Of a stretch of 38,070 nucleotides of DNA, positions 24,699-37,375 are shown one piece after another. Both the position numbers and the translations under genes were made by a program. Within the stretch, counting starts at the first letter, position 1, and each line of letters begins with the position of its first letter. Below the pieces are notes generated by a model. It was not told where the DNA came from and searched no databases. It saw only the letters and a list, made by a program, of their open reading frames with translations. The DNA comes from an uncultured Bacteroides sp. (GTDB lineage Bacteria > Bacteroidota > Bacteroidia > Bacteroidales > JACABE01): positions 1 to 38,070 of the forward strand of contig CAZUCB010000002.1 of the NCBI GenBank assembly GCA_964618755.1, given 5' to 3'.

Positions 24699-26321
24699 AT
24701 GATGAATAAAATCAAACATTTTTTATGCATATTTGGATTACTATTTCCCTTTATTATTAACGCTCAAACTTTACCATTCAATATATTGCTTGAACCTTTA
24801 AATATCCCAGAACTTGATGGACTTCAATCTTATGCTTATGGTCAGTATGATGGGAAATGGTTAATTATTGGAGGACGTATTGATGGACTTCATCGCAGGC
24901 AACCTTTTGCCAGTTTTGATATTGATGGAAATAATACACAATTACTTGTAATTGATCCTTTAGGTCAACAAAAATGGATTGCACCTTTAACTTCGCTTTC
25001 AACAGCCTTACAAGAGCAACTTAAATCAAGTAATATGGAATTTTATCAACATGGAGATTATTTATATCTATTGGGGGGTTATGGATATAGTCCTAGTATT
25101 GAAGACCATACAACGTTTAACAATCTAACAGCTATTGATGTACCAGCTACAATAAATGCAATTATAAAAAATACAGACTTAACTTCATTTTTTAGACAAA
25201 TAAATGACAGTCTGCTTCAAGTAACAGGTGGCGAATTAAGAATGATAAACAATAGTTTTTATTTAGTGGGCGGTCAGAAATTTATAGGGAGGTATAATCC
25301 TATGGGACCAGACCATGGACCAGGTTTTTTACAGGAATATACCAACCAAATCAGAAAATTCAACATTGAAGATAACGGAAGAAGTATTACAATAAACCAT
25401 GTATCAGTTATAACAGATGAAAACAATCTTCACAGAAGAGATTATAATCTAGTATCTCAAATTATGCCAAACGGACAAGAAGGATTAACTGCATTTTCAG
25501 GAGTTTTTCAAAAGAATCTGGATTTACCTTTTTTAAATTGCGTGAATATTGATAGCAACGAATATAATGTAAACAAAGCATTCACACAATATTACAACCA
25601 TTACCACTGTGCTGTACTTCCACTCTACTCAGCATCAAACAATGTAATGCACTCTGTTTTTTTTGGTGGCATAGCTCAATATTTTGATGATAAAGGAATA
25701 TTGACTCAGGATAATAATGTACCCTTTGTAAAAACGATAGCTAGCGTTACAAGAGATGCCAATGGCAAAATGGCTGAGTATAAATTTAATATAGAAATGC
25801 CGGCATTATTAGGAGCTGGTTCAGAGTTTATTGCGAATGAGAATTTAGCAAAATATCCAAATGGAGTTATAAAATTAGATGAAATTAAAACGGATACTAC
25901 ATTTGCAGGATATATTTTTGGTGGGATTAGTAGTACAGAGACAAATATTTTTTGGGTTAATGACGGAACTCAAAGCAATGCAAACAGCCAGATATACAAA
26001 GTATTTTTAACAAAAAATCCAACATCTAAATTTCATATTTTGAACGAACAAAGTACAGGAACATTGAAAATAATGCATTATCCTGTTACAAATGATAACA
26101 ACTTAGTTGTAAAATACAATTTAAGCAAAACAACTAATGTAAAACTCTCAATTTATGAATTAAACGGTAAAAAAATTGAAGATAAAATTTTCAAAAACAA
26201 ATCAGCAGGTGAAAACATCTATAAAAAGAAAATAAGAAAAAATACTGAAAAAAGAATTTACATATTATCTATAGAAACAGATTACGAAAAAGCAATTCAA
26301 AAAATAATCATTGAACCTTAA
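24699..26321 (+). CDS. Secreted Kelch-like beta-propeller protein with a degenerate T9SS type-A CTD
   Basis: Signal peptide; Kelch-like WLIIGG, LYLLGGY, FYLVGG, VFFGG, YIFGG; C-terminal SIYELNGK...IYILSI...QKIIIE. Confidence 0.7.
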   Translation: MMNKIKHFLCIFGLLFPFIINAQTLPFNILLEPLNIPELDGLQSYAYGQYDGKWLIIGGRIDGLHRRQPFASFDIDGNNTQLLVIDPLGQQKWIAPLTSLSTALQEQLKSSNMEFYQHGDYLYLLGGYGYSPSIEDHTTFNNLTAIDVPATINAIIKNTDLTSFFRQINDSLLQVTGGELRMINNSFYLVGGQKFIGRYNPMGPDHGPGFLQEYTNQIRKFNIEDNGRSITINHVSVITDENNLHRRDYNLVSQIMPNGQEGLTAFSGVFQKNLDLPFLNCVNIDSNEYNVNKAFTQYYNHYHCAVLPLYSASNNVMHSVFFGGIAQYFDDKGILTQDNNVPFVKTIASVTRDANGKMAEYKFNIEMPALLGAGSEFIANENLAKYPNGVIKLDEIKTDTTFAGYIFGGISSTETNIFWVNDGTQSNANSQIYKVFLTKNPTSKFHILNEQSTGTLKIMHYPVTNDNNLVVKYNLSKTTNVKLSIYELNGKKIEDKIFKNKSAGENIYKKKIRKNTEKRIYILSIETDYEKAIQKIIIEP

Positions 26322-26529: not shown

Positions 26530-27702
26530 CTAATATGTATGTGTTTCTGTTTTTACTTCCTCAATATCAATCTTTTTATTGTCAATTGAGCGCCAAGCAT
26601 ACCAAATGTAAGCTAAAACAAAAGGAACCAATAATGAAACATAACTCATTATTGTTAAGGTATAAAAACTGGATGAACTATTTTCAATGGTTAATGAGCT
26701 TTGTAAATCAAATGTTGAAGGATAATAGGCAGTATTATTAAATCCAGCTAATAGAAAAAGAGCGAAAACAGTAAGAATTGTTCCAATACCTGTTAACCAG
26801 ATTCCTTTTGTACCGCATTTTACAAAACACGCAATTGGTCTTATAATTCCTAATAATACCATTGCAACGCCTAAAATAAAAATGACAGCTACAACAGGCA
26901 TAGCAATTAAATTATGTAAGTATTTGTAAGGTTCAATAAAAACTTCTTTAGTAAGCGGATTTACAGCAAAACCTTTTGATAATAACAACCAGATTGTAAA
27001 AATCAGAAAGAAAATCACAAATGGAATCGCATTATAAACTAATTGTTTTTTAACACGTACCATTATTTCAGTATTATTTACTCTATTCATAAAATAAAGC
27101 AATGCCAATACACGGGTTAAAAAGAAAACAGTCAAGCCTAAAGTTAAATTATGCAGATTCAATGCAGCTTCTAATCCATAGGCCATACCTTTCCATTCGG
27201 ATATTACCGGCATTTTATCGCCAATTAGTCTGGTAATATTCATTTTGTCAACAGAAAAAGCTGAACCAGTAAAAAATGTTGCAACAGCAGTTCCAATTAA
27301 GACGGTACCCAGTAATCCATTGATGAATAAAAGCGTTTCATAAGTTCTTTTCCCAAATAAATTATTTGGCTTTTTGCGATATTCATAGGAAACAGCCTGT
27401 ACTACAAATGCAATTAAAATCAACATCCAAACCCAATAAGCACCACCAAAACTTGTAGAATAAAACAGGGGAAAGGAGGCAAAAAAGGCACCACCAAAGG
27501 TAACCAAAGTGGTAAATGTAAATTCCCACTTTCTGCCTAAAAGATTAACCAAAACTGTACGTTCGTCTTCGGTTTTTCCAAGTGTGTAAATCAATGTTTG
27601 ACCACCTTGTACAAACATAAGAAATACTAATATTGCACCCAATAGGGAAACGATTATCCACCAATATTGTTGCAAAGTGATATATGAAAATGTTTCAAAC
27701 AT
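26530..27702 (-). CDS. cydB: Cytochrome bd ubiquinol oxidase subunit II
   Basis: LQQYWW, FVQGGQ, GRKWEFTFTTLVTFGGAFFASFPLFY, EYR.K, SLTIENSSSS..TL..M; Bacteroidota-type CydB. Confidence 0.95.
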   Translation of the reverse strand: MFETFSYITLQQYWWIIVSLLGAILVFLMFVQGGQTLIYTLGKTEDERTVLVNLLGRKWEFTFTTLVTFGGAFFASFPLFYSTSFGGAYWVWMLILIAFVVQAVSYEYRKKPNNLFGKRTYETLLFINGLLGTVLIGTAVATFFTGSAFSVDKMNITRLIGDKMPVISEWKGMAYGLEAALNLHNLTLGLTVFFLTRVLALLYFMNRVNNTEIMVRVKKQLVYNAIPFVIFFLIFTIWLLLSKGFAVNPLTKEVFIEPYKYLHNLIAMPVVAVIFILGVAMVLLGIIRPIACFVKCGTKGIWLTGIGTILTVFALFLLAGFNNTAYYPSTFDLQSSLTIENSSSSFYTLTIMSYVSLLVPFVLAYIWYAWRSIDNKKIDIEEVKTETHTY

Positions 27703-27724
27703 AATACTATTTTTTAAGATTTAA

Positions 27725-29293
27725 TTAATTTTTTATTGTAAGATGATTAGCATCTTCTGAACCTGGTCCTTTTTTAATTTGTGAAACCATTATTTTGATT
27801 TCAGCAATGAGTAATCCTGTAAAAATTACTAAAAACAACCAAAAAGTAAATTGTACAGAAGCAGGTTTAATTTGAGAAACGGCTGCTATAGTTGGCAAAA
27901 TATCCTGAATAACCCATGGTTGACGACCTACTTCAGCAACAACCCAACCTAATTCTGAAGCTATATAAGCCAATGGAATTGTCCATAGTGCGGTATACAA
28001 AATAAAGCGCTTCTTTTCAATTTTATCTTTCTTAATTAATAGTAATACAACCAGAAATAAGGCTAAAAAATGAAATCCCAAGCCAACCATAATCCTAAAT
28101 GAATAAAATGTTGATGGTACACTTGGAATTAATTCATTCACATCTCTATTAGCATAATATCCATATCCAAAATGAGCATAATTTTCATTGAATCTTGCCA
28201 GAGCAGAAGTTGCAATACTATCATTTCCAGTTTTTTTAGCATTTTTATATTCAGCAAGTGACTGTATTGAAATCTTTCCTTTTTCACTGCGTTCTTTGTA
28301 GGATAATATATGATGCTCTGCATTACCTTTAACTAAATCATGAATACCAGGCACATAAGCATTGGGATCTAAAAATGCCATGTAGGAGAGCATATTTGGA
28401 ATTTCTAGTTTAAATACAAAATCTTGTTCTTTAGGATCAGTTTCGGTTTTATTTTTTTGCAAAAAACCAATGGCAACTAAAGGAGCATTTTGTTGTCCGG
28501 TATATAGGTTTTCCATAGCAGCAAATTTCATGGGTTGAAATTTAGCCATGTTACGGGCAGAACCATCTCCAGTTACGATTGTTAGAAATGATGCAGCAAT
28601 ACCAAAAATTGCTGCCACTTTCATGCTTTTTTTGGCAAACGTTTTCTCTCTGTTTTTTAACAGATACCATGCACTTACGCCAATTACAAATACTGCAGCC
28701 AATACATAAGCAGATAAAGCAGTGTGTAAAAATTTATTAATGGCTACAGGTGAAAACAAAACGTCCCAAAAATTAAGCATCTCGTTTCGGGCAGTATCAG
28801 GATTAAATTTCATTCCAGCCGGATTTTGCATCCATGCATTAGCGACTAAAATCCATAACGCTGATAGATTTGAACCAATGGCAACCAACCATGTTGAAAC
28901 TAAATGAAATTTTTTACTTACCTTATTCCATCCAAAAAACATAACTGCAATAAAGGTGCTTTCCATAAAAAATGCCATGATACCTTCAATAGCCAATGGT
29001 GCTCCAAAAATATCACCAACAAACCATGAATAATTTGACCAGTTTGTACCAAATTCAAATTCAAGGATAATTCCTGTTGCTACACCAATTGCAAAATTAA
29101 TTCCAAATAGCGTCATCCAGAATTTGGTAATTCGCTTCCATTCAGGATTACCAGTACGTACATACTGGGTTTCCATAAAAGCAATAATAAAAGAAAGCCC
29201 CAGGGTTAAAGGTACAAACAACCAATGATACATGGCTGTGAGTGCAAATTGAGCCCGCGACCAATCAACGAGTGAAAAATCTACATGTTCCAT
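27725..29293 (-). CDS. cydA: Cytochrome bd ubiquinol oxidase subunit I
   Basis: SRAQFALTAMYHWLFVPLTLG, EFEFGTNWS, ANAWMQ, KFLHT, QPMKFAAME, FRIMVG, GWVVAEVGRQPW. Confidence 0.97.
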   Translation of the reverse strand: MEHVDFSLVDWSRAQFALTAMYHWLFVPLTLGLSFIIAFMETQYVRTGNPEWKRITKFWMTLFGINFAIGVATGIILEFEFGTNWSNYSWFVGDIFGAPLAIEGIMAFFMESTFIAVMFFGWNKVSKKFHLVSTWLVAIGSNLSALWILVANAWMQNPAGMKFNPDTARNEMLNFWDVLFSPVAINKFLHTALSAYVLAAVFVIGVSAWYLLKNREKTFAKKSMKVAAIFGIAASFLTIVTGDGSARNMAKFQPMKFAAMENLYTGQQNAPLVAIGFLQKNKTETDPKEQDFVFKLEIPNMLSYMAFLDPNAYVPGIHDLVKGNAEHHILSYKERSEKGKISIQSLAEYKNAKKTGNDSIATSALARFNENYAHFGYGYYANRDVNELIPSVPSTFYSFRIMVGLGFHFLALFLVVLLLIKKDKIEKKRFILYTALWTIPLAYIASELGWVVAEVGRQPWVIQDILPTIAAVSQIKPASVQFTFWLFLVIFTGLLIAEIKIMVSQIKKGPGSEDANHLTIKN

Positions 29294-29309
29294 ACTTTAA
29301 TGTTTAAAA

Positions 29310-29519
29310 TTATTTTGTTAATTGTTTAATTACATAATTACTTCTTTCATCATCTGTTTTAAAATTTGATTTCAAAAAATTTGGAAAAAATAATAATTTT
29401 AAAATCAAAAAAATGATGCCCAATTTTATAAGGATAATTATCCATAGTTTTTTTCCAACTGTCATATTTTTAAACCCTTGAAAATAAAACTCAAATATTT
29501 TTTTTGCAATTTTCATCAT
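29310..29519 (-). CDS. DUF4492 small membrane protein, typical upstream of Bacteroidota cydA
   Basis: FYFQGFKNMTVGKKLWIIILIKL.I.F.ILKLLFFPNFL. Confidence 0.88.
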   Translation of the reverse strand: MMKIAKKIFEFYFQGFKNMTVGKKLWIIILIKLGIIFLILKLLFFPNFLKSNFKTDDERSNYVIKQLTK

Positions 29520-29655
29520 ACTTATTCAGTTCATTCTTTATTCAGGACAAATGCAGATAGAATTTAAAAAGATTATCAAAAATATTTCTCTAAAATATAA
29601 AATAGTCATTGGTCATTAAATAGTATTTTATATAATAATAAAAAATAGAATATAG

Positions 29656-31545
29656 TTAACTAATAAAAGTATAGATTATCAATAATGCTAAAATCAAACC
29701 GATAAGCACAGCAAATAGTCCAAACAAACGCAATGTGATATCTAACCATAGCGGACTGGGTTTCTTTACCTCAAAATCTTGAGTAATCCCTTGCTCTTGA
29801 TAGCGTTCCCATTGTTCGCTTCGTTCATGAATCATTTCTTCCTCAGTTATTTGACCATTAAAAATTACAAAGTCCATAGGAAACTTTTCAGAGCGAAAAT
29901 GTGTGTTGAAGAAATGGATGGTAAAAATGAAACCAACAGCTAACAACGCCTCGTCTGAATGAATGATCGTTGCAACGTTAAAAAACCATCCTGGTAGGAA
30001 TTTTCCAAAGAATTCAGGAAACCAAAGAAGTAATCCACTAGAACCTATAACAGCTACCCCCCAGAAAACAGCTAAAAAGTCAAATTTTTCCCAATAAGTC
30101 CATCTGTCAAAGCTTGGTTTTGGTCCACGGAAAAAGAACCAACGAAACATAGCCTTCATATCACGAAAATCTTTTCGATTAGGAAAAAGGGAATCAAAAC
30201 CGAATAGTCGTTGAAAGAAGCTTTCATTTGATGTTTTTTTAGAAAATAGAAAGCGACTACTCATCACAAGAGCTACAATAAAATATCCAAAGGTAATGAT
30301 GGCACAAATTCGATGAATTAAGCCAGCATTGGTGGTTCCTCCAAAGAAATCCATTAAAACTTTACCCCATGAAGTTTGATTAAATTTCAATGGAAGACCA
30401 GTTAAAGCCAATCCAAGGAAACTAGTTACAACAAACAAATGAAGAATTATATGTATAGGACGAAAACGTCTGTAAACTTTTCTTCTAATTTTCTGATTTT
30501 CTTTTGAATTTGTTGCTGATTTATAAAAGAAAGCCGCATTGCGCATTTGTTTCTTTTCAACAAAACCTCTATATGCCCATAGTATTGAATGAATCCAAAA
30601 GAACAGGAAGGTTCCAATCAATAGAGCATTCATGCTTATGGTAATCCAGAAAAGCAGAGGAAACTTACTGTAGTTGGTGGGTTCTGCATGGGCAATAAAT
30701 TTTGTAAATTTATTACTAGAGTACTTATGACATTGTTTACAGGTATTAGCTATATGGGCCGAATTCACAGTTGAATTGGTATCCTTTTCCGGAAGAATAT
30801 TGTGTGCACTATGACAATCTGAACAGCCAGCAACCTTTTCAGGATAGCCAAGTCTCATGTTCTTACCATGATAACTTTCAAAATAGGTTTCTGGTGCTAT
30901 TGTAGTCACTTTATTTCGTGCCATCATTTCCGCATCTGAGTGACACTTCAAACATGCTTGTGTATGGAAAGATCGTCCTTGAGCATCATTATCAATTTTT
31001 TTAATAGCATGAAGACCATGACAATCTGAGCAAGTAGGAGCATCATTTTTTCCATTAATAAGTGCTTTAAAGTGTGTCGATTTAAAATAGTGAGATACTT
31101 TCTGATGACATTGCCCACACAACTTTGCTGCAGCCACTTTATCATTTTTAATAGAAGTGATATTATGAATGTCAGCATGGCATTTTGAGCAAGTTATAGG
31201 AAGTCGATTAGCATTGTGAATACTTGTTTCATGTTCTTTCGCAATTGAATTGTGGCAACTATTACAATTCATGGGTTTAAATTTAACAATACATTGTTTT
31301 TTCCCTGCTGTCTCCCTTACAATTGTTTGCTTAGCCTCATCCTTAACGTGACATGCAGAACACATAAGCGAATTATGAACAGACGCATTGTAAGCATGGG
31401 TGGAAATATTTTTTTTGTGGCAGCTTATACACTCCGAGTTAGATGAAGCTAAAATTGAAGGAGTTTGTGCTATTGCCACTAATGTTACCAATCTAATGAT
31501 TAGTAAAAGGCTAATTATTTTGAATGTTGAAGATAATTTATTCAT
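29656..31545 (-). CDS. Nonaheme cytochrome c fused to a cytochrome b (FdnI/HydC-like) membrane domain; CbcL-like quinol oxidoreductase
   Basis: Nine CxxCH motifs (CISCH, CSACH, CNSCH, CSKCH, CGQCH, CSDCH, CLKCH, CSDCH, CKQCH), then TM helices with heme-b His candidates (ILHLF, IHRIC, IIHSDEA, TIHFF), [10 protein letters not shown] and [18 protein letters not shown]. Confidence 0.9.
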
Positions 31546-31560
31546 AAGATTTAATAAAAT

Positions 31561-32757
31561 TTAGCTGCAAAGTCCTCCTGATCGTTTTTTAGAACCTATT
31601 TTAATTTTAGGAACATATGCATTTTTTGAGAATAATTGAAGTACTTCTGCTGGAGGAGAAGCAAGATTGATCGCTTTCTCATGTATTTTTTTATCAGCAA
31701 ATAGACTAATCCAGTTATGTAAACCGTTTTCGAGTATATATAAATTTACTACTCCCTGAACTTTCAGATATTGCCACGCTTTGATAGAGATTGAATCGTT
31801 ATCTGCTAAAAGCACCACAACACCTTGAGGTGGAAGCTGAGCAAGTGGAGCCACAAACTTAGCATTTAAAAGGTCGTCCAGTTTAACATTTTCTGAACCA
31901 CTCAAATGAAAATTCTCAAAATCTTTATTCGGACGTAAGTCCAGCGTAATAAGTTTTATTGTTGATTCGTAATTAGTTTTTACATATTCCAATGGATGAA
32001 TAAAAACAGCTTTTGATGAAAGTTGTCCTGAATACTTGGTTTCCATAATTTTCCATTTACGAATTGGGTCAGGTTGCCCGATAGACCAAACCAATACTGC
32101 AATTGCAACTAACACAACAGCACCGTAAAGATAAGGTCGCTTTGTAATTTTCCACGTCATGGCTTTACCTGTTTCCTTATTTTTGAAAAACTCTTCCACT
32201 TTCTCTGCACCATAAAACATCATTAAAGCAAATATTGTAACAATAAATACTGTTGCACCAATTGATATACCCAACCAGTCGGAAACCAAATATCGGTCGG
32301 TGAAAGAAGAATTCCAGAAATCTTCAAACCCAGGTAAAGATTCACCAAACAGCCCAGCTCCAATAATTGTTCCAACAAGGAAGAAAAGTCCATCTATTTT
32401 AAAACTTGCTGTCGCAACAAGCGAAGTACCAGGACAATAACCACCAATAATAAAGCCAACTCCCATAATGAGTCCTCCAACAATACCAGGCAATAAGAAT
32501 GTTTGGTTTACAGCGAGTTGAGAAAAATCGAGCAATCCTAAGGCTGATGAAAGAAAAATCAAAAGGCAGGCTACAAGAATACCTGTAAACATTGTTTTTA
32601 ATACGGTCATATCTTTTAAATAAAATTGAGCAGCAAGACGACGTGAATCGCCAAATCCTGCTAATTCTAAAGCAATACCGAAACCAGCACCAATTATAAA
32701 GAAAACCGCATATCCGCCGGCTTTTCCAAGTTCTGTAATAATATCAATAGGTAACAT
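31561..32757 (-). CDS. YeeE/YedE sulfur-compound transporter subunit fused to a C-terminal rhodanese-like domain
   Basis: GFG.ALE.AGFG.S..LAAQFY..DMTVLK.MF, GG.IMG.GF..GGYCPGT; soluble part has LDLRP..DFENFHL.GS and LYILENGL..W; ends KKRSGGLCS. Confidence 0.88.
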   Translation of the reverse strand: MLPIDIITELGKAGGYAVFFIIGAGFGIALELAGFGDSRRLAAQFYLKDMTVLKTMFTGILVACLLIFLSSALGLLDFSQLAVNQTFLLPGIVGGLIMGVGFIIGGYCPGTSLVATASFKIDGLFFLVGTIIGAGLFGESLPGFEDFWNSSFTDRYLVSDWLGISIGATVFIVTIFALMMFYGAEKVEEFFKNKETGKAMTWKITKRPYLYGAVVLVAIAVLVWSIGQPDPIRKWKIMETKYSGQLSSKAVFIHPLEYVKTNYESTIKLITLDLRPNKDFENFHLSGSENVKLDDLLNAKFVAPLAQLPPQGVVVLLADNDSISIKAWQYLKVQGVVNLYILENGLHNWISLFADKKIHEKAINLASPPAEVLQLFSKNAYVPKIKIGSKKRSGGLCS

Positions 32758-32780
32758 AGTAAATTTCTCTTTTTTATAAA

Positions 32781-33302
32781 TTAATCAGCCCAAAGACGAC
32801 GAACAAAATATGCAACTGCATAGCCTCCAATAAATACACTAAACATAAAAGCCCAACTTCCAAGCGAAAGAACTGCTCCACCTGATAATGCTTGCCCTGA
32901 TGTGCACCCACGTGCAAATCGAGCTCCATATCCCATAATAATTCCTCCTAATATTGCAAAGAAAAGTCGTTGAATATTAGATATTTTAGATCCTTTGTAT
33001 ATTTCAATTTTTAATCTACCATTTAGCAATGCTGAAATTAATCCACCTGCAAATGTTCCAATTAAAAGAAGAATGCTTGGGTGATCTAAAGCGTTACTTT
33101 TGCCTGCTCCCATAGAAGCAAAAGTACCGACACTGTCAACATGTGATGACCAAAACAATTTTGTAATTGCAACTTGAATTCGACTAATTGCTCCTGAGGC
33201 TCCCAAACCACTATGAGTTAATGCAAAAGCGGCAAAAAGAACTACACCGAGAATAGTTCCAGCAAAATATGGATTTTTGACGTTTTTTGGTATCCTTTTC
33301 AT
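32781..33302 (-). CDS. YeeE/YedE sulfur-compound transporter subunit (half-transporter)
   Basis: NPY.AG..LG, GLGASG, G.F.GG.ISA, GG.IMGYGARFARGCTSGQALSG. Confidence 0.9.
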   Translation of the reverse strand: MKRIPKNVKNPYFAGTILGVVLFAAFALTHSGLGASGAISRIQVAITKLFWSSHVDSVGTFASMGAGKSNALDHPSILLLIGTFAGGLISALLNGRLKIEIYKGSKISNIQRLFFAILGGIIMGYGARFARGCTSGQALSGGAVLSLGSWAFMFSVFIGGYAVAYFVRRLWAD

Positions 33303-33326
33303 TGTATAATTTCTTTAATTATTATT

Positions 33327-34763
33327 TTATTTCTTAACTACCTGAACAGGATCACGATCGTATCCAAGTTCTTTCCAGTTCAAACGACCTTGCTTAGAAT
33401 GGCATTGCTCACATGACAATGCATTCTTTTTTATTGAAACCATGTGAGTAATTGGCCCATACATCTTTGTATGCGTAAAAGCATACTTACCACTATAAGG
33501 CAAACCGTTGATTTCTGCACCTTTTTTAATGGCATATGCCCAATTAAATTTAGTCCAATATCCACCTTCACCACTGGTTAATGGTGGTATAATTATATTA
33601 TTAATTGGATCATAAGGTTGGCTGGCATGATGTATTTTAAATGGCCATATCTTTGCCTTTGAATCATTACGTGAACCAATCGGACGATTAATAAAATGTT
33701 CAGCTTCTGAATCAAGCTTGTCACCAAGGACGTAGCGATCCATTTTGCCTGTGTACCAAGCATAAGTTGGAACAACATCCTCCTCATAATGAAACTCACC
33801 TTTAATTTTCAGGTATTCATGAGGGCTGTCTTTTCGGGTAGAATCACCTGCTTTTGACCAATCCCAAGTCATTTTTGTCGGGAACTTTCTTGCAAACTCA
33901 GGAATATGGCAGGTCTGACAGGCTATACGAACAGCATGTTCGTTAAGACGCTGATCTTTATGAGCTTTCTCTGTATGACAATTCTCACATCCAAAACGAA
34001 CTGCCTTGGTTTTTTCAGTATACGTTGTATTCAATTTACCAGAAATAACATGATTGTGTGTTTTATGGCAATCTATACATTGAAAATTGAGCTTACCCAT
34101 ATGGTAGTCAAGTTCCTGATTTGCATTCAGTAAAGATTCGTCAAGATCTCCATGTTTTACACCCATACCCCCACCTCCATTGAAATGGCAAATGCCACAG
34201 TTTTCACGATAAGGACGACGTACACTTCCTGCAACTAAACGTAAATCAACATTTTTATTTGGCAAGCCGAGTTTTGTTTTTGAGTAAGTTCCAGAGCCAT
34301 CATGGCATACTATACAGTCCACATTTTCTTCTTTTGAAAAATCGAAACTCATGTCCCCCCAGCCATATCCAGCATGACATATTACACAAGAGCCCCAATT
34401 ACCTACCACACTGATACAATAGTTATTTATTTGATTTCGTTTTCCAAGAAGAATACTTTTCCCATTTCGAACAACATCACCACTAATCCATGTCCAATGT
34501 GCTGTTTGCATTATTTCCTTAGCACTATTTGTATGACATTTAATGCACATTCGGGTCACTTGCTGAGGAGAAGTAATCGAGTCCTTGAAATAAGCACTGT
34601 GGTCTAAATGAGGCAACATGCGTCCTTCAAGTGGATTTTCAGGATGTTGCTCAGATTCTTCATTGGTTTTAGAGTTATTGTTGCACGAAGTTGCTACTAT
34701 TAAAAACAGAAGCAATATTCCAGCAAGACGTAATGTAAAGAGTAAAGACTTAAAAATTGTCAT
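33327..34763 (-). CDS. otr: Octaheme tetrathionate reductase (OTR)-family cytochrome c, predicted lipoprotein
   Basis: Eight CxxCH motifs (CIKCH, CVICH, CIVCH, CGICH, CIDCH, CENCH, CQTCH, CEQCH); family signatures HWTW, GK.N.INNYC, CHAGYGW, CHF.GGGG.GVKHGDLD, ACQTCHIP, WDWSKAG, KIWPFK.H, ITHMV; lipobox ATSC. Confidence 0.92.
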   Translation of the reverse strand: MTIFKSLLFTLRLAGILLLFLIVATSCNNNSKTNEESEQHPENPLEGRMLPHLDHSAYFKDSITSPQQVTRMCIKCHTNSAKEIMQTAHWTWISGDVVRNGKSILLGKRNQINNYCISVVGNWGSCVICHAGYGWGDMSFDFSKEENVDCIVCHDGSGTYSKTKLGLPNKNVDLRLVAGSVRRPYRENCGICHFNGGGGMGVKHGDLDESLLNANQELDYHMGKLNFQCIDCHKTHNHVISGKLNTTYTEKTKAVRFGCENCHTEKAHKDQRLNEHAVRIACQTCHIPEFARKFPTKMTWDWSKAGDSTRKDSPHEYLKIKGEFHYEEDVVPTYAWYTGKMDRYVLGDKLDSEAEHFINRPIGSRNDSKAKIWPFKIHHASQPYDPINNIIIPPLTSGEGGYWTKFNWAYAIKKGAEINGLPYSGKYAFTHTKMYGPITHMVSIKKNALSCEQCHSKQGRLNWKELGYDRDPVQVVKK

Positions 34764-34834
34764 AATTTCTTATTTGAATGTGTAATTGTCCCTTCAAAAA
34801 AAACACTGATATTATTATTTTTTAATATCTGAAG

Positions 34835-34842
34835 CAAAGTTA
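34835..34842 (-). promoter_or_regulatory. -7 element (TAACTTTG) of the otr operon; no clear -33 TTTG
   Basis: CAAAGTTA on +, about 70 nt upstream of the otr ATG. Confidence 0.6.
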
Positions 34843-34894
34843 AAGTTATAAGTAGTTATTAAGATATAATCTTATGTGAAGATTGGTAATATAT

Positions 34895-34927
34895 TTTGTG
34901 ATATTCATCACATTTTATATATCTTTG
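34895..34927 (+). promoter_or_regulatory. Promoter of the Crp/Fnr gene (-33 TTTG, -7 TATCTTTG), overlapped by the CRP box
   Basis: TTTG at 34895-34898, a 21-nt spacer, then TATCTTTG at 34920-34927. Confidence 0.65.
34897..34912. promoter_or_regulatory. Crp/Fnr-family binding site TGTGA-N6-TCACA
   Basis: TGTGA-TATTCA-TCACA, an exact CRP-type palindrome in the intergenic region between otr and the divergent Crp/Fnr gene. Confidence 0.85.
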
Positions 34928-34945
34928 TATTCTTAATTTAATTTC

Positions 34946-35626
34946 ATGGAAAAAAAAAACTGTAAACACTGTTCTGTAAAATCAAAAGCAGAAGAAATCC
35001 TTAGTGTTGATGAATTAGAGGAACTTGGTAGAAGTTGTAATGATGTTGATTTTAAAAAAGGGGAAAGTATCATCAAAGAAGGCACTCTAACTTCTAATGT
35101 AATTTATATTAAAAGTGGCTTGGTTAAAATTCACAAAAAGGGACCACATAAAGAATTGATTTTAAGATTAGTAAAAGCACCTTCTTATTTGGGATTGCCT
35201 TCTGTTTTTGGTGATAAAATCAATCAATATTCGGCTACAGCTATCGAAAATTCAAGTGCTTGTTTTATTTCATTCAATGCTTTTCAAAAATTTATTTTTA
35301 CAAATGGTAATTTTGCTTTGGAAATAATTGCTGAATTATGTCGAAACGAAATAAATGACAACCAACGTTGGGTGAATCAATCTCAAAAAAATGTAAATGG
35401 TAGATTGGCAGAAACCCTTTGCTGTATATCTCATCATATTTTTCAAAACGAAACTTTTAATCTTCCTCTTACACAAAGCGAATTGGGTGATTTAACAGGT
35501 ACTTCCCGCGAAAGTGTATGTAGAATTCTCACTGAGTTTTCACAGGATGGAATTATCAGTCAATCTGGTAAAGAAATATCAATAATAAATGCTGAAAAGT
35601 TAGAAAAAATAAGCAAAAATGGTTGA
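34946..35626 (+). CDS. Crp/Fnr-family transcriptional regulator with N-terminal CxxC
   Basis: CKHC; cNMP-binding-like FKKGE.I..EG...IYIKSGLVKI; RLAE.L; HTH LTQSELGDLTGTSRESVCRIL.EF...GII. Confidence 0.95.
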   Translation: MEKKNCKHCSVKSKAEEILSVDELEELGRSCNDVDFKKGESIIKEGTLTSNVIYIKSGLVKIHKKGPHKELILRLVKAPSYLGLPSVFGDKINQYSATAIENSSACFISFNAFQKFIFTNGNFALEIIAELCRNEINDNQRWVNQSQKNVNGRLAETLCCISHHIFQNETFNLPLTQSELGDLTGTSRESVCRILTEFSQDGIISQSGKEISIINAEKLEKISKNG

Positions 35627-35818: not shown

Positions 35819-37375
35819 TTATTCCTTTATAAATTTAATGGTCTGTTGACTTTGTCCTTCAACTTGAAAGAAATAAATGCCACAATTCAACGTATTAATA
35901 TTAATAGTTGTAGCCTTTGAAGTCAATTTACCTTTAATTACAACTTTACCCAGTAAATTGAATACGGAATAATTCATATCTGATAAGTTTGGGTTTGCTT
36001 TTACCACAATTATATCTGTAGCTGGATTTGGGTATATTTCTGAGAGCCAAACTTGTTTATTTATCTCATTAATACCGGTAATAGTATTATTGTAACGAGC
36101 TAAGGCAAAATCAGCATCACCATTATATTTGCTGTTTCCTGCCACTATTATTTTACCATCGGATTGTAATGCTATGGCTCTGCCAAAATCAATATGACTA
36201 CTAAAATCGGTAGTAAGTTTACCATCTGTATCAAAAGTAATGTCGATGCTTCCATTGATTGTATAACGTGCTAAAGCGAAATCATAACTGTTGTCATTTT
36301 TACTATATCCTGCTGCTAAAATTTTATCATCACTTTGTATTACAATTGAATTAATTTCATTTGCAGAATTGCCAATTGCATTGGTTACTATTCCATTGGC
36401 ACCAAATGTGCTATCGATTATTCCATTGGTTTTGTATCGAACTAATGTAAAATCTGTTGTAAAACCATTGTGACTATATCCTGCCATTACGATTTTGCCA
36501 TTGCTTTGTAAAGCTATTGAATTACAATAATTAATAGTTGCACTTATAGATATAGTATCTTTTCCATCGGTATTGAAAGTATTGTCGGGGCTTCCATCAA
36601 TATTAAAGCGGGCTATTGCAAAATTTGGATTGCCATTATTAACACTATTTCCTGCTAATACAATTTTGTTGTCATTTTGTATTAGGATTGTACTACAGGA
36701 AGCTAAACTATCTTCAAAATTGGTTAATGCTATTCCATCGTAATTAAAAGCAAGGTCAGGGATGCCGCTACTATGGTATCGAATAGCAAACATTTGTTTA
36801 CTCCCATTATTATTTATTTCGGTAGTGCCAGCTACTGTAATGTCGCCGTTGCTTTGAAGAGCTAAAGCATTTCCATAATCGTTAAAGCTACCTACAGATG
36901 TTGTAACTATTCCATTATTACCAAAATTGATGTCGAGGGTTCCATTGCTATTATAACGAGCTACTGCTACCACACTATAACCCTTAATACTATCCTGAGT
37001 TGTACCTGCAATTATAATTTTCCCATCGCTTTGTATTGCCATAGAATTTCCGTAATCATGAAGGCTACAAACAGAAGTGGTTACTATTCCATTGGTACCA
37101 AAACTATTGTCGAGAGTTCCGTTTGAAAGATAGCGAGCTATTGCAAAATCTGGATATGAAATTGGATAACTATATCCTGCTACTACAATTTTCCCATCGC
37201 TTTGCACTGCAATGGCTGTAATTTCGTCGTACAGACTCCCAATATTAGTAATAACTTTACCATTTGTTCCAAAACTAAGGTCTAACGAACCGTCTTGAGC
37301 ATAAGAATTGCTTTTCAATAACAAAGATGTAGTAATAAATAATGCTAATGTAACAATTGTAATTTTCTTTTTCAT
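35819..37375 (-). CDS. T9SS type-A secreted protein with seven delta-60 (DUF5122-like) repeats, probable beta-propeller
   Basis: Seven Q(S/N)D(G/N)KI-type repeats with 'ARY..NG.LD..FG.NG.VTT'; C-terminal IYPNPA...VFNLLGK...GIYF...KFIKE. Confidence 0.9.
   Translation of the reverse strand: MKKKITIVTLALFITTSLLLKSNSYAQDGSLDLSFGTNGKVITNIGSLYDEITAIAVQSDGKIVVAGYSYPISYPDFAIARYLSNGTLDNSFGTNGIVTTSVCSLHDYGNSMAIQSDGKIIIAGTTQDSIKGYSVVAVARYNSNGTLDINFGNNGIVTTSVGSFNDYGNALALQSNGDITVAGTTEINNNGSKQMFAIRYHSSGIPDLAFNYDGIALTNFEDSLASCSTILIQNDNKIVLAGNSVNNGNPNFAIARFNIDGSPDNTFNTDGKDTISISATINYCNSIALQSNGKIVMAGYSHNGFTTDFTLVRYKTNGIIDSTFGANGIVTNAIGNSANEINSIVIQSDDKILAAGYSKNDNSYDFALARYTINGSIDITFDTDGKLTTDFSSHIDFGRAIALQSDGKIIVAGNSKYNGDADFALARYNNTITGINEINKQVWLSEIYPNPATDIIVVKANPNLSDMNYSVFNLLGKVVIKGKLTSKATTININTLNCGIYFFQVEGQSQQTIKFIKE

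Follow-up and report, generated by a model that had tools for sequence, protein, structure and literature searches.

The window (the whole 38,070-nt stretch of DNA that was analysed, from an uncultured Bacteroides sp.) carries a four-gene set that is best read, with a probability of roughly 0.55, as a menaquinol-driven periplasmic sulfur-compound reductase built around an octaheme cytochrome of the OTR family. According to the synteny counts given below, the four genes belong together functionally, as a conserved set whose linkage lies far beyond chance. This set of otr, the armed YeeE pair and the c/b fusion offers a testable clue to the long-puzzling cellular role of OTR.

The genes are arranged head to tail on the minus strand in the order otr, YeeE C-half, YeeE N-half with a rhodanese-like domain, and nine-heme c/cytochrome b fusion. 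The features are as follows.

33327-34763, minus strand: otr, 478 aa with 8 CXXCH motifs
32781-33302, minus strand: YeeE C-half, 173 aa, matching Pfam Sulf_transp profile positions 174-309
31561-32757, minus strand: YeeE N-half plus rhodanese-like domain, 398 aa, Pfam Sulf_transp 12-205 and Rhodanese
31708-31956, minus strand: the rhodanese-like domain of that protein, aa 268-350, Pfam E 8.6e-8
31564-31602, minus strand: its C-terminal arm, aa 386-398, KIGSKKRSGGLCS, with the Cys397 codon at 31567-31569
29656-31545, minus strand: 9-CXXCH c/cytochrome b561 fusion, 629 aa
29310-29519, minus strand: gene that opens the cyd unit, for a small membrane protein of the DUF4492 family, Pfam DUF4492 E 1.2e-27
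27725-29293, minus strand: cydA, Pfam Cyt_bd_oxida_I
26530-27702, minus strand: cydB, Pfam Cyt_bd_oxida_II
34946-35626, plus strand: Crp/Fnr-family regulator gene divergent from otr, 226 aa, Pfam cNMP_binding and HTH_Crp_2
34897-34912, no strand: perfect CRP-type palindrome TGTGA-N6-TCACA, TGTGAtattcaTCACA, in the 182-nt divergent intergenic region
34835-34842, minus strand: Bacteroidetes-type -7 box match from a pattern scan, TAACTTTG, upstream of otr

The first-pass annotation, made from the sequence alone, had described this layout accurately. ORF coordinates and strands agree with co-oriented genes separated by 24, 23 and 15 nt, with a further gap of 136 nt to DUF4492-cydAB in which a simple scan likewise revealed no terminator-like site, and with a divergent Crp/Fnr gene and its palindrome upstream. 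All the families that it named were recovered with Pfam and NCBIfam profiles.

Conservation was assessed in a scan of GTDB species, taking the best 80 of 587 relatives, 60 of which had at least 6 kb of downstream sequence. All four parts were present in 58 of these 60 informative loci, which come from many phyla (yeeE-C 59, yeeE-N 59, rhodanese 59, multiheme c 59 and cytochrome b 60). The set occurs in two gene orders with two heme counts, a 9-heme protein encoded downstream or a 7-heme protein encoded between the other genes, and has therefore been retained through rearrangement. YeeE linkage is not a property of the whole OTR family, since in a sample of 401 genomes from the phylum the YeeE pair adjoins about half of the OTR genes (31/61), whereas 23/61 are flanked by a cytochrome b alone and 7/61 lack both neighbours. 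The neighbourhood proposed at first pass (OTR, a YeeE pair and a c/b protein) thus holds among the nearest loci but not throughout the phylum. Targeted literature searching found no description of the four-gene set; the first-pass annotation likewise named no characterised operon of this composition in Bacteroidota.

The OTR protein scores 540 bits against TIGR04315 (NCBIfam cut-off 375), matches PDB 1SP3 with E 1e-125, and begins with a signal or possible lipoprotein signal (Cys27). Its Lys108 (codon 34440-34442) and free Cys116 (codon 34416-34418) are each invariant in 80/80 and 60/60 homologues. To our knowledge, no OTR has been linked to a physiological substrate by experiment. Lys108 aligns with Lys56, the heme-II ligand of Shewanella OTR (PMC3769277), and the Lys-ligated heme 2 is a feature common to the OTR family. 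In an acidobacterial MAG, otr was reported to be up 36-fold after tetrathionate addition (PMC8528874), and in Shewanella sp. ANA-3 turnover of tetrathionate and trithionate is described as almost unchanged in delta-ttr delta-otr relative to delta-ttr (PMC12949373).

The c/b fusion possesses 9 CXXCH motifs, about 5 TM helices and a cytochrome b561 domain of the FdnI/HydC type; it shares the architecture of CbcL, which bears out its initial labelling as a CbcL-like quinol oxidoreductase. Pfam Cytochrome_C7, Cytochrom_c3_2 and NNT are above cut-off, while Ni_hydr_CYTB, at 29.4 bits, falls 0.7 below its cut-off of 30.1 (relatives reach 81-91 bits). Three histidines, His369, His411 and His529, are retained in 122/123 sequences; the fourth ligand is probably His544, which sits one alignment column away from the His of the other groups. 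We predict that the fusion is a menaquinol dehydrogenase. Cytochrome b561-type subunits run either way (compare FdnI with PhsC), and the direction of electron flow is therefore not fixed by family. A cytochrome c maturation gene, of the kind that the first-pass annotation proposed to look for elsewhere in the genome, is present as a fused ResB-CcsA.

Both YeeE halves score far below the NCBIfam cut-offs for the TsuA/YedE families. The C-half corresponds to TsuA helices H8-H13, and its Cys133 (RGCTSGQ), invariant in 72/72 homologues, is assigned to TsuA Cys293 through the published PmpA/TsuA correspondence. The N-half has 6 predicted TM helices and an invariant Cys108 (68/68 homologues) assigned to TsuA Cys91. 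In the rhodanese-like domain the catalytic Cys is replaced (the loop reads LLADNDSIS), and none of the 68 aligned homologues has a Cys in this loop. The protein ends Gly-Gly-Leu-Cys-Ser, with Gly395 and the penultimate Cys397 (68/68) invariant, and a tail of the form GGC, GGCx or GGLCx closes every complete homologue linked to OTR (28/28) in the phylum sample. Neither the loss of the catalytic Cys nor this tail was noted in the first-pass annotation. An AF2 model gives pLDDT of about 90 for the rhodanese part and below 50 for the tail (391-398); the top Foldseek matches of the rhodanese part in the PDB are rhodanese-like domains, the best at E 4.4e-3 and none reaching 1e-3. Since the N terminus of TsuA lies outside (PMC7449682) and the N-half has six TM helices with K/R-rich loops at 36-59 and 181-208, topology rules and homology suggest that the domain and its arm are probably periplasmic.

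A complex prediction for OTR 40-478 with the rhodanese-tail region 228-398, using alignments built within this analysis, scored 0.53 (runs 0.59, 0.53 and 0.53; best of 3 controls 0.00), in a range, 0.60 or under, where only 7/80 solved complexes pass together with both of the passing mismatches. Overall the benchmark mark is reached by 58/80 solved complexes and 2/110 mismatched pairs. At least 75% of contacts are shared among the runs, with a partner pLDDT of 86, and the prediction as a whole lends weak support to the association.

For the OTR module we infer the direction of electron flow, the substrate, the topology and the role of the arm as follows. The cytochrome b561 domain would oxidise menaquinol, and the nine c hemes would relay electrons from there to OTR at the periplasmic face of the inner membrane. 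OTR may then reduce oxidised or sulfane sulfur, whether as tetrathionate or polythionate, as polysulfide, or as an adduct on a protein thiol. The YeeE halves would form a PmpAB/TsuA-like channel whose N-half bears the non-catalytic periplasmic domain, and the flexible Cys arm could collect or offer the sulfur species on its way from OTR to the mouth of the channel. Through this channel thiosulfate or sulfane sulfur, as the product, would enter the cell.

The divergent Crp/Fnr-type regulator, which scores under every NCBIfam equivalog cut-off, probably controls transcription at the TGTGA-N6-TCACA box. Perfect sites of this kind number 3 in the 2.84-Mb genome, with 2.7 expected from composition; support for the palindrome therefore comes from its position and not from its existence. 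Among related Bacteroidota loci it is kept 124-158 nt upstream of otr, perfect in L006 and with 1 mismatch in L002, L003, L004 and L007, and none with 2 or fewer mismatches occurs in L008-L018. The -7 box is a match to the Bacteroidetes-type consensus only, and an RNA-library contig spans 34555-34810, extending past the otr start codon by 47 nt on the upstream side. A divergent Crp-like gene precedes otr in only 3 of the 80 loci (L002, L003 and L006; best 80 of 587 relatives). Regulator type varies by lineage, with ArsR, Rrf2 or MerR elsewhere, so the regulators give no common signal.

DUF4492-cydAB, first taken as part of the module, is better treated as an adjacent unit, probably separately promoted, that lies outside it: a -7 box match was found by pattern scan at 29584..29577, inside the 136-nt gap, and cydA is absent from the examined flanks of 80 and 60 other OTR loci (0/140). 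Both observations speak against an oxidative module, a wider form of the second option in the first-pass annotation and the strongest of the alternatives, though still unlikely, in which OTR oxidises arm-borne sulfane (from sulfide or polysulfide) or thiosulfate and the c/b fusion passes electrons to menaquinone and bd oxidase. In its favour, an FdnI-type cytochrome b can reduce quinone, and the cyd genes do follow without a terminator-like site. The Sox-type Cys-arm motif is GGCGG, and menaquinone has a potential of about -74 mV. The oxidative Sox pathway supplies the best-known carriers with a Cys arm (PMC5336275), and otr of lucinid symbionts is reported beside divergent soxY/soxZ (PMC11237559). 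However, the tetrathionate/thiosulfate couple, given as E0' = +198 mV (PMC8528874), cannot reduce menaquinone, so that the originally suggested transfer of electrons from thiosulfate to quinone, and on to O2 through bd oxidase, is thermodynamically unfavourable for a menaquinone organism. The same accessory genes also serve Psr/Phs-type reductases.

About as improbable is the proposal that makes OTR a MccA/SirA-like sulfite reductase of the periplasm (six electrons, to sulfide), with the YeeE pair and arm handling sulfite- or sulfide-derived sulfur. Shewanella sp. [quoted passage not shown] Also in its favour, genes for a rhodanese, a TauE/SafE sulfite exporter and an MBL-rhodanese protein come after the set in one locus from Chloroflexota (L058). 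Against it, the CX15-17CH motif is absent from the OTR sequence analysed here.

It is more doubtful still that OTR draws on quinol to reduce nitrite, hydroxylamine or NO, for detoxification or ammonification, beside functionally unrelated YeeE genes. Nitrite and hydroxylamine are reported as the preferred in vitro substrates (PMC12949373, citing Atkinson 2007 and Buckley 2019), the locus has a Crp/Fnr regulator, and an Rrf2 regulator, as before otr in L023, could hint at NO. Yet the YeeE pair and Cys arm stay beside otr in 59/60 of the nearest loci (best 80 of 587), across phyla and despite reordering, and these accessory genes recur downstream of Psr/Phs-type enzymes. Moreover, the genome has its own nrfHA for nitrite (NrfA 610 bits, plus NrfH), which strengthens the initial view that YeeE linkage favours a sulfur substrate. 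In this genome (92.8% complete) the only YeeE-family genes are the two at the otr locus, and the sole molybdopterin match is formate-dehydrogenase-like.

Handling of selenium (or arsenic/tellurium) oxyanions, with OTR reducing selenite or a relative and a YedE-like channel and arm taking up the reduced chalcogen, is very improbable: the C-half finds its best NCBIfam match in the YedE/FdhT model of selenium metabolism, but at 54.6 bits, far below its cut-off of 350, and the selenocysteine forms of YeeE/YedE (GUxSG) and the OTR family tabulated in a review (PMC13188914) belong to Sec/Cys pairs that mark redox-active thiols generally and not a selenium substrate.

The reductive sulfur reading draws further support from loci elsewhere in the phylum. 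All eight YeeE loci fetched away from OTR (8/8) have the order MerR, PhsA/PsrA-like, PsrB-like, NrfD, yeeE-C, yeeE-N and Cys-less rhodanese, their PhsA/PsrA-like proteins scoring 463-536 bits against a cut-off of 694. These eight cassettes encode 9 membrane-anchored, Cys-less rhodaneses ending in ..EGC or ..GGC, and the free-standing Cys-tailed forms carry the anchor at the N terminus, in keeping with the topology proposed for the arm. Psr/Phs enzymes are quinol-oxidising sulfur reductases. The presence of the YeeE pair and Cys-tailed rhodanese downstream of such molybdoenzymes supports a reductive sulfur role and the first-pass idea of a molybdenum-free alternative, which had been framed there against TtrABC or TsdA/DoxDA. 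The OTR module thus shares its accessory genes with the PsrABC/PhsABC-like cassettes, and its Cys-ended, probably periplasmic tail may be likened to the SoxY or Sud sulfur carriers.

The core of the window is a run of four closely spaced genes that encode an octaheme c-type cytochrome of the tetrathionate-reductase family (OTR), the two halves of a YeeE-family protein, and a fusion of a nine-heme cytochrome c with a cytochrome b (c/b fusion). An ORF map, with families assigned by Pfam and NCBIfam, bears out the gene order, strands, and gaps of the first-pass annotation.

34946-35626, plus strand: Crp/Fnr-family gene, divergent from otr
33327-34763, minus strand: otr, 478 aa, eight CXXCH motifs
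32781-33302, minus strand: YeeE/YedE C-half, 173 aa
31561-32757, minus strand: YeeE/YedE N-half with a rhodanese domain, 398 aa
29656-31545, minus strand: c/b fusion, 629 aa, nine CXXCH motifs and a cytochrome b561-type membrane part
29310-29519, minus strand: DUF4492 gene (Pfam E 1.2e-27)
27725-29293, minus strand: cydA (Pfam, 574 bits)
26530-27702, minus strand: cydB (Pfam, 223 bits)

Gaps of 24, 23, and 15 nt separate the four genes, and 136 nt lie between the c/b fusion and DUF4492, which is followed by cydA and cydB. A simple scan found no terminator-like site in the 136-nt gap, and a pattern scan placed a Bacteroidetes-type -7 box match inside it, which counts as weak evidence; a sigma-70 promoter scan was uninformative (38 sites versus 38.4 expected). 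Among the matches listed, the window was matched in 20 sequencing runs from 12 studies, labeled as freshwater or lake-water metagenomes. Metatranscriptome contigs (two runs of one sample in one study) partly cover otr, the two yeeE genes, the c/b gene, cydA, and cydB, with identities of 99% or higher, and one covers the otr start codon and 47 nt upstream, though such RNA-library contigs are no proof of transcription and the parts they leave uncovered are uninformative. None from these two runs bridges a gene junction; the nearest to doing so (X19 record 6, 32595-32790) reaches just 10 nt past the gap between yeeE-N and yeeE-C.

At 29404 and 31618, contigs from DNA and RNA runs leave the window sequence and share the same unlike continuation in several runs, which suggests that a relative is also present whose sequence diverges within DUF4492 and close to the 3' end of YeeE-N. 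Two other ORFs deserve mention: one of 540 aa (24699-26321, plus strand), between an MFS transporter gene and cydB, which matches no Pfam family at E <= 1e-3, and one of 518 aa (35819-37375, minus strand) that combines six DUF5122 beta-propeller repeats with a C-terminal sorting domain for type IX secretion, which fits a Bacteroidota origin.

Conservation was assessed in two samples. The nearest-relative sample, drawn by an OTR alignment scan with one genome per GTDB species, holds the best 80 of 587 relatives with 10-kb flanks; parts were detected by tblastn with the window proteins and the c/b proteins of three relatives, and synteny was counted, for these nearest relatives only, at the 60 of the best 80 loci with at least 6 kb downstream of otr. 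For the phylum sample, 401 genomes of the window's phylum were searched with TIGR04315, which gave 61 matches above the cut-off in 59 genomes; the window's own match aside, about 19 kb was fetched around each of the remaining 60.

All four parts are present at 58 of the 60 nearest loci (YeeE C-half, YeeE N-half, rhodanese part, and multiheme c at 59 each; cytochrome b at 60); the exceptions are L064, which lacks YeeE, and L032, where the heme part was not detected separately. The window's gene order recurs at L002-L019 (Bacteroidota, Ignavibacteria/Chlorobiota, Opitutaceae, Oligoflexia, and Myxococcota), and in a second layout, at L020-L081 (Chloroflexota, Myxococcota, Planctomycetota, Spirochaetes, and others), otr and the YeeE genes are separated by a 7-heme c/cytochrome b561 fusion of 720-920 aa. 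That the set is kept despite this change of gene order and heme number argues for function and not for inheritance alone.

At two of these loci (L044:9869-13168 and L032:10001-12105), the OTR frame or match continues into the next multiheme region, forming a 1,099-aa ORF with 12 CXXCH motifs in L044; either the genes are fused there, or the assembly or reading frame is at fault. In a Chloroflexota locus (L058:17113-19623), a gene group headed by an ArsR regulator follows the OTR set at a distance of about 1 kb and encodes a single-domain rhodanese, a TauE/SafE sulfite exporter, and a persulfide-dioxygenase-like metallo-beta-lactamase/rhodanese protein, an arrangement that we take to resemble BigR-type sulfide-stress operons.

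The phylum sample gives a more divided picture. The YeeE pair lies directly downstream at 30 of its 60 loci, cytochrome b alone at 23, and neither at 7. Three of the YeeE-linked loci are of the window type; in the remaining 27, the gene for a membrane-anchored OTR precedes those for a simple cytochrome b561 of 200 aa, the YeeE C-half, and the rhodanese-bearing YeeE N-half. The four-gene grouping proposed in the first-pass annotation stands among the nearest relatives; in the phylum sample, with the window counted in, 31 of the 61 OTR genes are YeeE-linked. On these counts the constant partner of OTR is cytochrome b, and the YeeE pair accompanies about half of the family in this phylum. The 23 loci with cytochrome b only (L115-L136 and L139; family f25 and others) encode an OTR of 540-600 aa and a 200-aa cytochrome b561, and the solitary OTR genes (L137, L138, L150, L151, L153, L155, and L167) encode about 457 aa; with these, OTR genes occur in no fewer than four genomic contexts within a single phylum. 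A distinct family of 625-720 aa matches TIGR04315 weakly and only at model positions 71-257 (L179:7666-9543, minus strand; G265, G041, G361, G169, G089, G065, and G241); its L179 member, the sole one inspected, has eight CXXCH motifs, and in G265 it adjoins a Psr-type YeeE cassette.

The bd oxidase does not belong to the conserved module. No cydA match was found in the flanks of other OTR loci (0 of the best 80 and 0 of the 60 in the phylum sample), and the oxidase is a neighbor peculiar to the window's genome.

The OTR itself gives a full-length alignment with Shewanella OTR 1SP3 (E 1e-125) and scores 540.3 bits on TIGR04315 (cut-off 375) and 194.9 bits on PF11783. The enzyme is widespread: at least 5,765 proteins reached E 1e-3 or better among 8,000 OTR candidates scored. 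Its eight heme motifs are all CXXCH, with no CXXCK. In Shewanella OTR, Lys56 is the ligand of heme II (C74xxC77H78) (PMC3769277); Lys108 aligns with Lys56 and C126-H130 with C74-H78, and ligation by Lys108 is predicted. This lysine and a free cysteine eight residues past it, Cys116, are each invariant in 80 of 80 nearest and 60 of 60 phylum-sample homologues, in the case of Cys116 whether YeeE-linked or not. A table in one review includes the OTR family among selenoproteins (PMC13188914); selenocysteine at Cys116 was considered and rejected, with in-frame stops in 0 of 80 alignments. Two OTR-like matches (G030:C42:1988-2857 and G384:C7:51757-52037) are interrupted by three and one in-frame TGA, respectively, and could be decayed genes or selenocysteine forms.

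In the c/b fusion, a signal peptide and nine CXXCH motifs are combined with a b561/FdnI-type domain. Of 123 relatives, 122 retain His369, His411, and His529, and the fourth b-heme ligand is likely His544, which lies one column off the His column of other groups. The window protein falls just short of the Ni_hydr_CYTB cut-off (29.4 versus 30.1 bits), with relatives at 81-91 bits, and among solved structures it gave a weak c7-like match alone (8K9E, E 1.6e-3).

The YeeE halves score 80.3 and 67.8 bits on Sulf_transp (PF04143; cut-off 27), covering profile positions 174-309 and 12-205. Scores against the equivalog models are low: 31.3 for TsuA (cut-off 400), 54.6 for YedE/FdhT (350), and 20.4 for seleno_YedE (200). 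Judged by profile, both are members of the YeeE family and not TsuA. Across 68 complete homologues, the only invariant cysteines of the YeeE-N/rhodanese protein are Cys108, in the channel loop, and the penultimate Cys397; the sole cysteine of the C-half, Cys133 in RGCTSGQ, is present in 72 of 72. Split PmpB/PmpA have counterparts of Cys91 and Cys293, two cysteines on which TsuA depends (PMC11582611, PMC7449682), and Cys108 and Cys133 are here assigned by comparison to these two positions. The TsuA Cys22 equivalent is not conserved, Cys64 being found in just 16 of 68.

Cys397 sits in a short C-terminal arm, which in the 68 homologues ends in ...K-K-R-x-G-G-L-C-S or ...G-G-C-G (GGLCS in the window). 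All 28 complete OTR-linked homologues of the phylum sample terminate in GGC, GGCx, or GGLCx; two further YeeE-N ORFs, interrupted or running off the contig end, are outside this count. The domain that precedes the arm matches PF00581 (33 bits, cut-off 22.2). A cysteine in the rhodanese active-site loop is found in 0 of 68 homologues; the window's loop reads LLADNDSIS, and residues 228-396 of its protein contain no cysteine. The corresponding region of nine free-standing relatives has none either, except for two non-loop cysteines in L178. A Foldseek search of the YeeE-N model against the PDB returned nothing at E <= 1e-3; its top matches were rhodanese-like domains (target TM 0.6-0.74, best E 4.4e-3). 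In the AlphaFold2 model, pLDDT is about 90 over the rhodanese part and below 50 over residues 391-398, so this part is modeled as a compact domain ending in a flexible tail; the membrane half, modeled in the absence of its partner, was poorly folded (pLDDT 41-51 over residues 85-150).

The N-half contains six hydrophobic helices; its loops at 36-59 and 181-208 are rich in K/R, and the one at 133-161 is acidic. Taken together with the TsuA N terminus, which lies outside (PMC7449682), the helix number and loop charges would place the rhodanese domain and its tail in the periplasm. We infer the same, independently, from the free-standing relatives, which combine an N-terminal membrane anchor with a Cys-less rhodanese and the same Cys end.

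These relatives come from a second, parallel type of cassette. When the 401 phylum genomes were searched with the YeeE-N protein, matches were found in 75, of which 40 have no OTR above the cut-off. Eight YeeE loci away from OTR were fetched (L177-L184, regions of G381, G385, G265, G020, G295, G145, G337, and G312), from five OTR-less genomes and three with a solitary OTR. All eight begin with a MerR-like regulator, a Tat-signal molybdopterin subunit, a 4Fe-4S (PsrB-like) subunit, and an NrfD/PsrC membrane subunit, and all end with the YeeE C-half, the YeeE N-half, and a membrane-anchored Cys-less rhodanese with a C-terminal Cys (...KKREGC, ...GGC); L181 has two Cys-tailed rhodaneses in tandem. 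The best model for the molybdopterin subunit is thiosulfate reductase PhsA, at 463-536 bits and thus below its cut-off of 694, which is why the enzyme is called Psr/Phs-like here. By gene content, the same accessory genes serve either OTR with cytochrome b or a Psr/Phs-type molybdoenzyme with NrfD. The idea of a molybdenum-free alternative, raised in the first-pass annotation, finds its strongest support in this cassette. Since Psr/Phs enzymes are quinol-oxidizing reductases, a reductive role on sulfane-containing sulfur compounds is also supported. The cassette recalls the Psr-Sud pair of Wolinella, in which polysulfide sulfur reaches the reductase through Sud, a periplasmic rhodanese-like protein; one of the Foldseek fold matches, at rank 23, is the Sud structure 1QXN.

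The window's assembly (271 contigs, 92.8% complete) encodes a fused ResB-CcsA, a cytochrome c maturation protein. It also encodes NrfA (610 bits) and NrfH, and therefore a dedicated nitrite reductase. This 92.8% complete genome yielded no Ttr, Psr, or Phs, its sole molybdopterin-family match being formate-dehydrogenase-like, and there are no YeeE-family genes beyond the two in the window. Large multiheme cytochromes with 16, 19, 12, and 15 CXXCH motifs are encoded on contigs C25 (1492-11791), C197 (87-3786), and C84 (3036-5156), and a 6-heme and 4-heme gene pair adjoins the fused ResB-CcsA gene; these genes suggest a heme-rich, possibly extracellular, electron transfer capacity.

With respect to regulation, the 182-nt divergent spacer contains a perfect CRP-type box, TGTGAtattcaTCACA, at 34897-34912. 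The existence of such a box means little by itself, because three are seen genome-wide versus 2.7 expected. It is kept 124-158 nt upstream of otr in related Bacteroidota, perfectly in L006 and with one mismatch in L002, L003, L004, and L007; no box with two or fewer mismatches was found in L008-L018. A Crp-like gene lies upstream of otr only in L002, L003, and L006 (best 80 of 587), and the otr regulators of other lineages are ArsR, Rrf2, or MerR. An FNR-type box (TTGAT-N4-ATCAA) was considered and rejected, with 22 in the genome and 0 in the otr-Crp/Fnr intergenic region. FNR binds its [4Fe-4S] cluster through a C-X2-C-X5-C ... C pattern; the window's regulator has Cys6, Cys9, Cys31, and Cys106, a spacing unlike this one, and scores 58 bits versus 228 on the Fnr model. 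Predicted Crp/Fnr control and the chance neighborhood of cydAB are the window's own peculiarities.

Our preferred reading is a reductive module, in which the set would pass electrons from menaquinol through cytochrome b and the nine c hemes to OTR; OTR would reduce sulfur species, either free or bound to the arm Cys, and the YeeE heterodimer would take up its product. The oxidative alternative, in which the module would feed electrons toward the bd oxidase, is disfavored because cydAB is not a conserved neighbor of otr, the Psr/Phs-type cassettes indicate reduction, and thiosulfate oxidation would be too weak a donor. The potential of menaquinone is too low for reduction by a couple at +198 mV. 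This is the value given for thiosulfate/tetrathionate (PMC8528874).

Published evidence on the substrate is mixed. Tetrathionate raised otr 36-fold in a sediment microcosm (PMC8528874). Tetrathionate reductase activity is contested even for the founding OTR member, and in Shewanella sp. ANA-3 an otr deletion in a ttr-deletion background left tetrathionate turnover nearly unaltered, the authors suggesting sulfite (PMC12949373). In Beggiatoa, otr adjoins cytochrome b and phsABC (PMC6449678), and in lucinid symbionts it adjoins divergent soxY/soxZ (PMC11237559).

A more speculative reading, to which we give a probability of roughly 0.3, is that the substrate of the OTR family, and of the Psr/Phs-like enzymes that share its accessory genes, is sulfur held covalently on the terminal Cys of the arm, not a free ion. 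The arm would swing between the Lys-heme/Cys pocket of OTR and the mouth of the split YeeE channel. Structure prediction of OTR 40-478 with the rhodanese-tail 228-398 gave a score of 0.53 (runs 0.59, 0.53, and 0.53), against 0.00 for the best of three controls; 58 of 80 solved complexes pass the mark for this score, as do 2 of 110 mismatched pairs, and passes at 0.60 or below comprise 7 of the 80 solved complexes and both mismatches. The runs share at least 75% of contacts, and partner pLDDT is 86 (own alignments; no interface output). The prediction is compatible with an OTR-tail contact and lends it slight support, not proof. If sulfur is indeed arm-bound, quinol-driven reduction and sulfur import would be coupled in one machine, a counterpart of SoxYZ or Sud that is reductive and anchored to the membrane, and "tetrathionate reductase" would be a misnomer.

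Targeted full-text literature searches yielded no description, in main texts, of a set of OTR, cytochrome b, and split YeeE with a Cys arm; the supplementary neighborhood tables of PMC6449678 and PMC8528874 may list relevant genes. The module is thus widely conserved and apparently unpublished. The crystal structure of OTR dates from 2004. According to a 2026 paper, its physiological function has never been established (PMC12949373). The conserved set links OTR with a quinol module of its own and with a sulfur channel that bears a tethered Cys arm, and its accessory genes also serve Psr/Phs-type enzymes; together these links make the question experimentally addressable. If the carrier-arm reading is true, anaerobes of freshwater and sediment would have a further, molybdenum-free way to respire sulfur-cycle intermediates, and periplasmic redox chemistry would be coupled to import in a new manner.

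Among the closest known systems is the OTR of Shewanella oneidensis (SO_4144; PDB 1SP3; TIGR04315), which shares the eight CXXCH motifs, the Lys56/Lys108 and Cys64/Cys116 pairs, and a full-length alignment. It is described as soluble with CymA as the proposed donor (PMC12949373). In the window, otr is accompanied by genes for a dedicated c/b quinol module and for a YeeE pair bearing a Cys arm.

[quoted passage not shown] It differs in supplying extracellular electron transfer and no dedicated enzyme, and the relatives of the window's set have 7-heme fusions or a plain cytochrome b.

TsuA (YeeE)-TsuB (YeeD) shares the Sulf_transp fold and the channel Cys equivalents of Cys91 and Cys293, invariant here, and PmpA/PmpB share the split into N-half and C-half. 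Unlike the single TsuA/YedE-type polypeptide of nine TM helices, YeeE is split here over two genes, the C-half gene comes first, and the N-half is longer by two TM helices and a periplasmic domain (both predicted); the set also lacks a Cys22 equivalent, has no YeeD/TsuB (TusA-like) partner gene in the operon, and scores far under the TsuA cut-off.

The SoxY swinging arm carries the motif GGCGG. The tail described here resembles it without matching it exactly: it is a flexible, Gly-rich C-terminal peptide with a single Cys that could carry sulfur intermediates, but its form is GG(L)C[SG], with EGC also in relatives; its domain is rhodanese-like, not a SoxY fold, and the operon has no SoxZ-like ORF. 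The Sox system is, moreover, oxidative and soluble. TtrABC and TsdA possibly have in common with the set a substrate class and a reliance on quinol-derived (Ttr) or heme-borne (TsdA) electrons, but their proteins are unrelated to it.

A functional parallel is PsrABC/PhsABC with Sud (Wolinella succinogenes), a periplasm-facing, quinol-fed sulfur reductase with a rhodanese-fold sulfur binder, which is what we propose for the window. The catalytic subunit here is a multiheme cytochrome instead of Mo-bisPGD, and the quinol module a cytochrome b instead of NrfD/PsrC. The Cys that Sud uses lies in the active-site loop of its rhodanese fold; in the window's domain, which is tethered to the channel, that Cys is absent and the C-terminal Cys invariant. 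What joins the two systems is that Psr/Phs-like operons of the window's phylum carry the same YeeE pair and Cys-tailed rhodanese.
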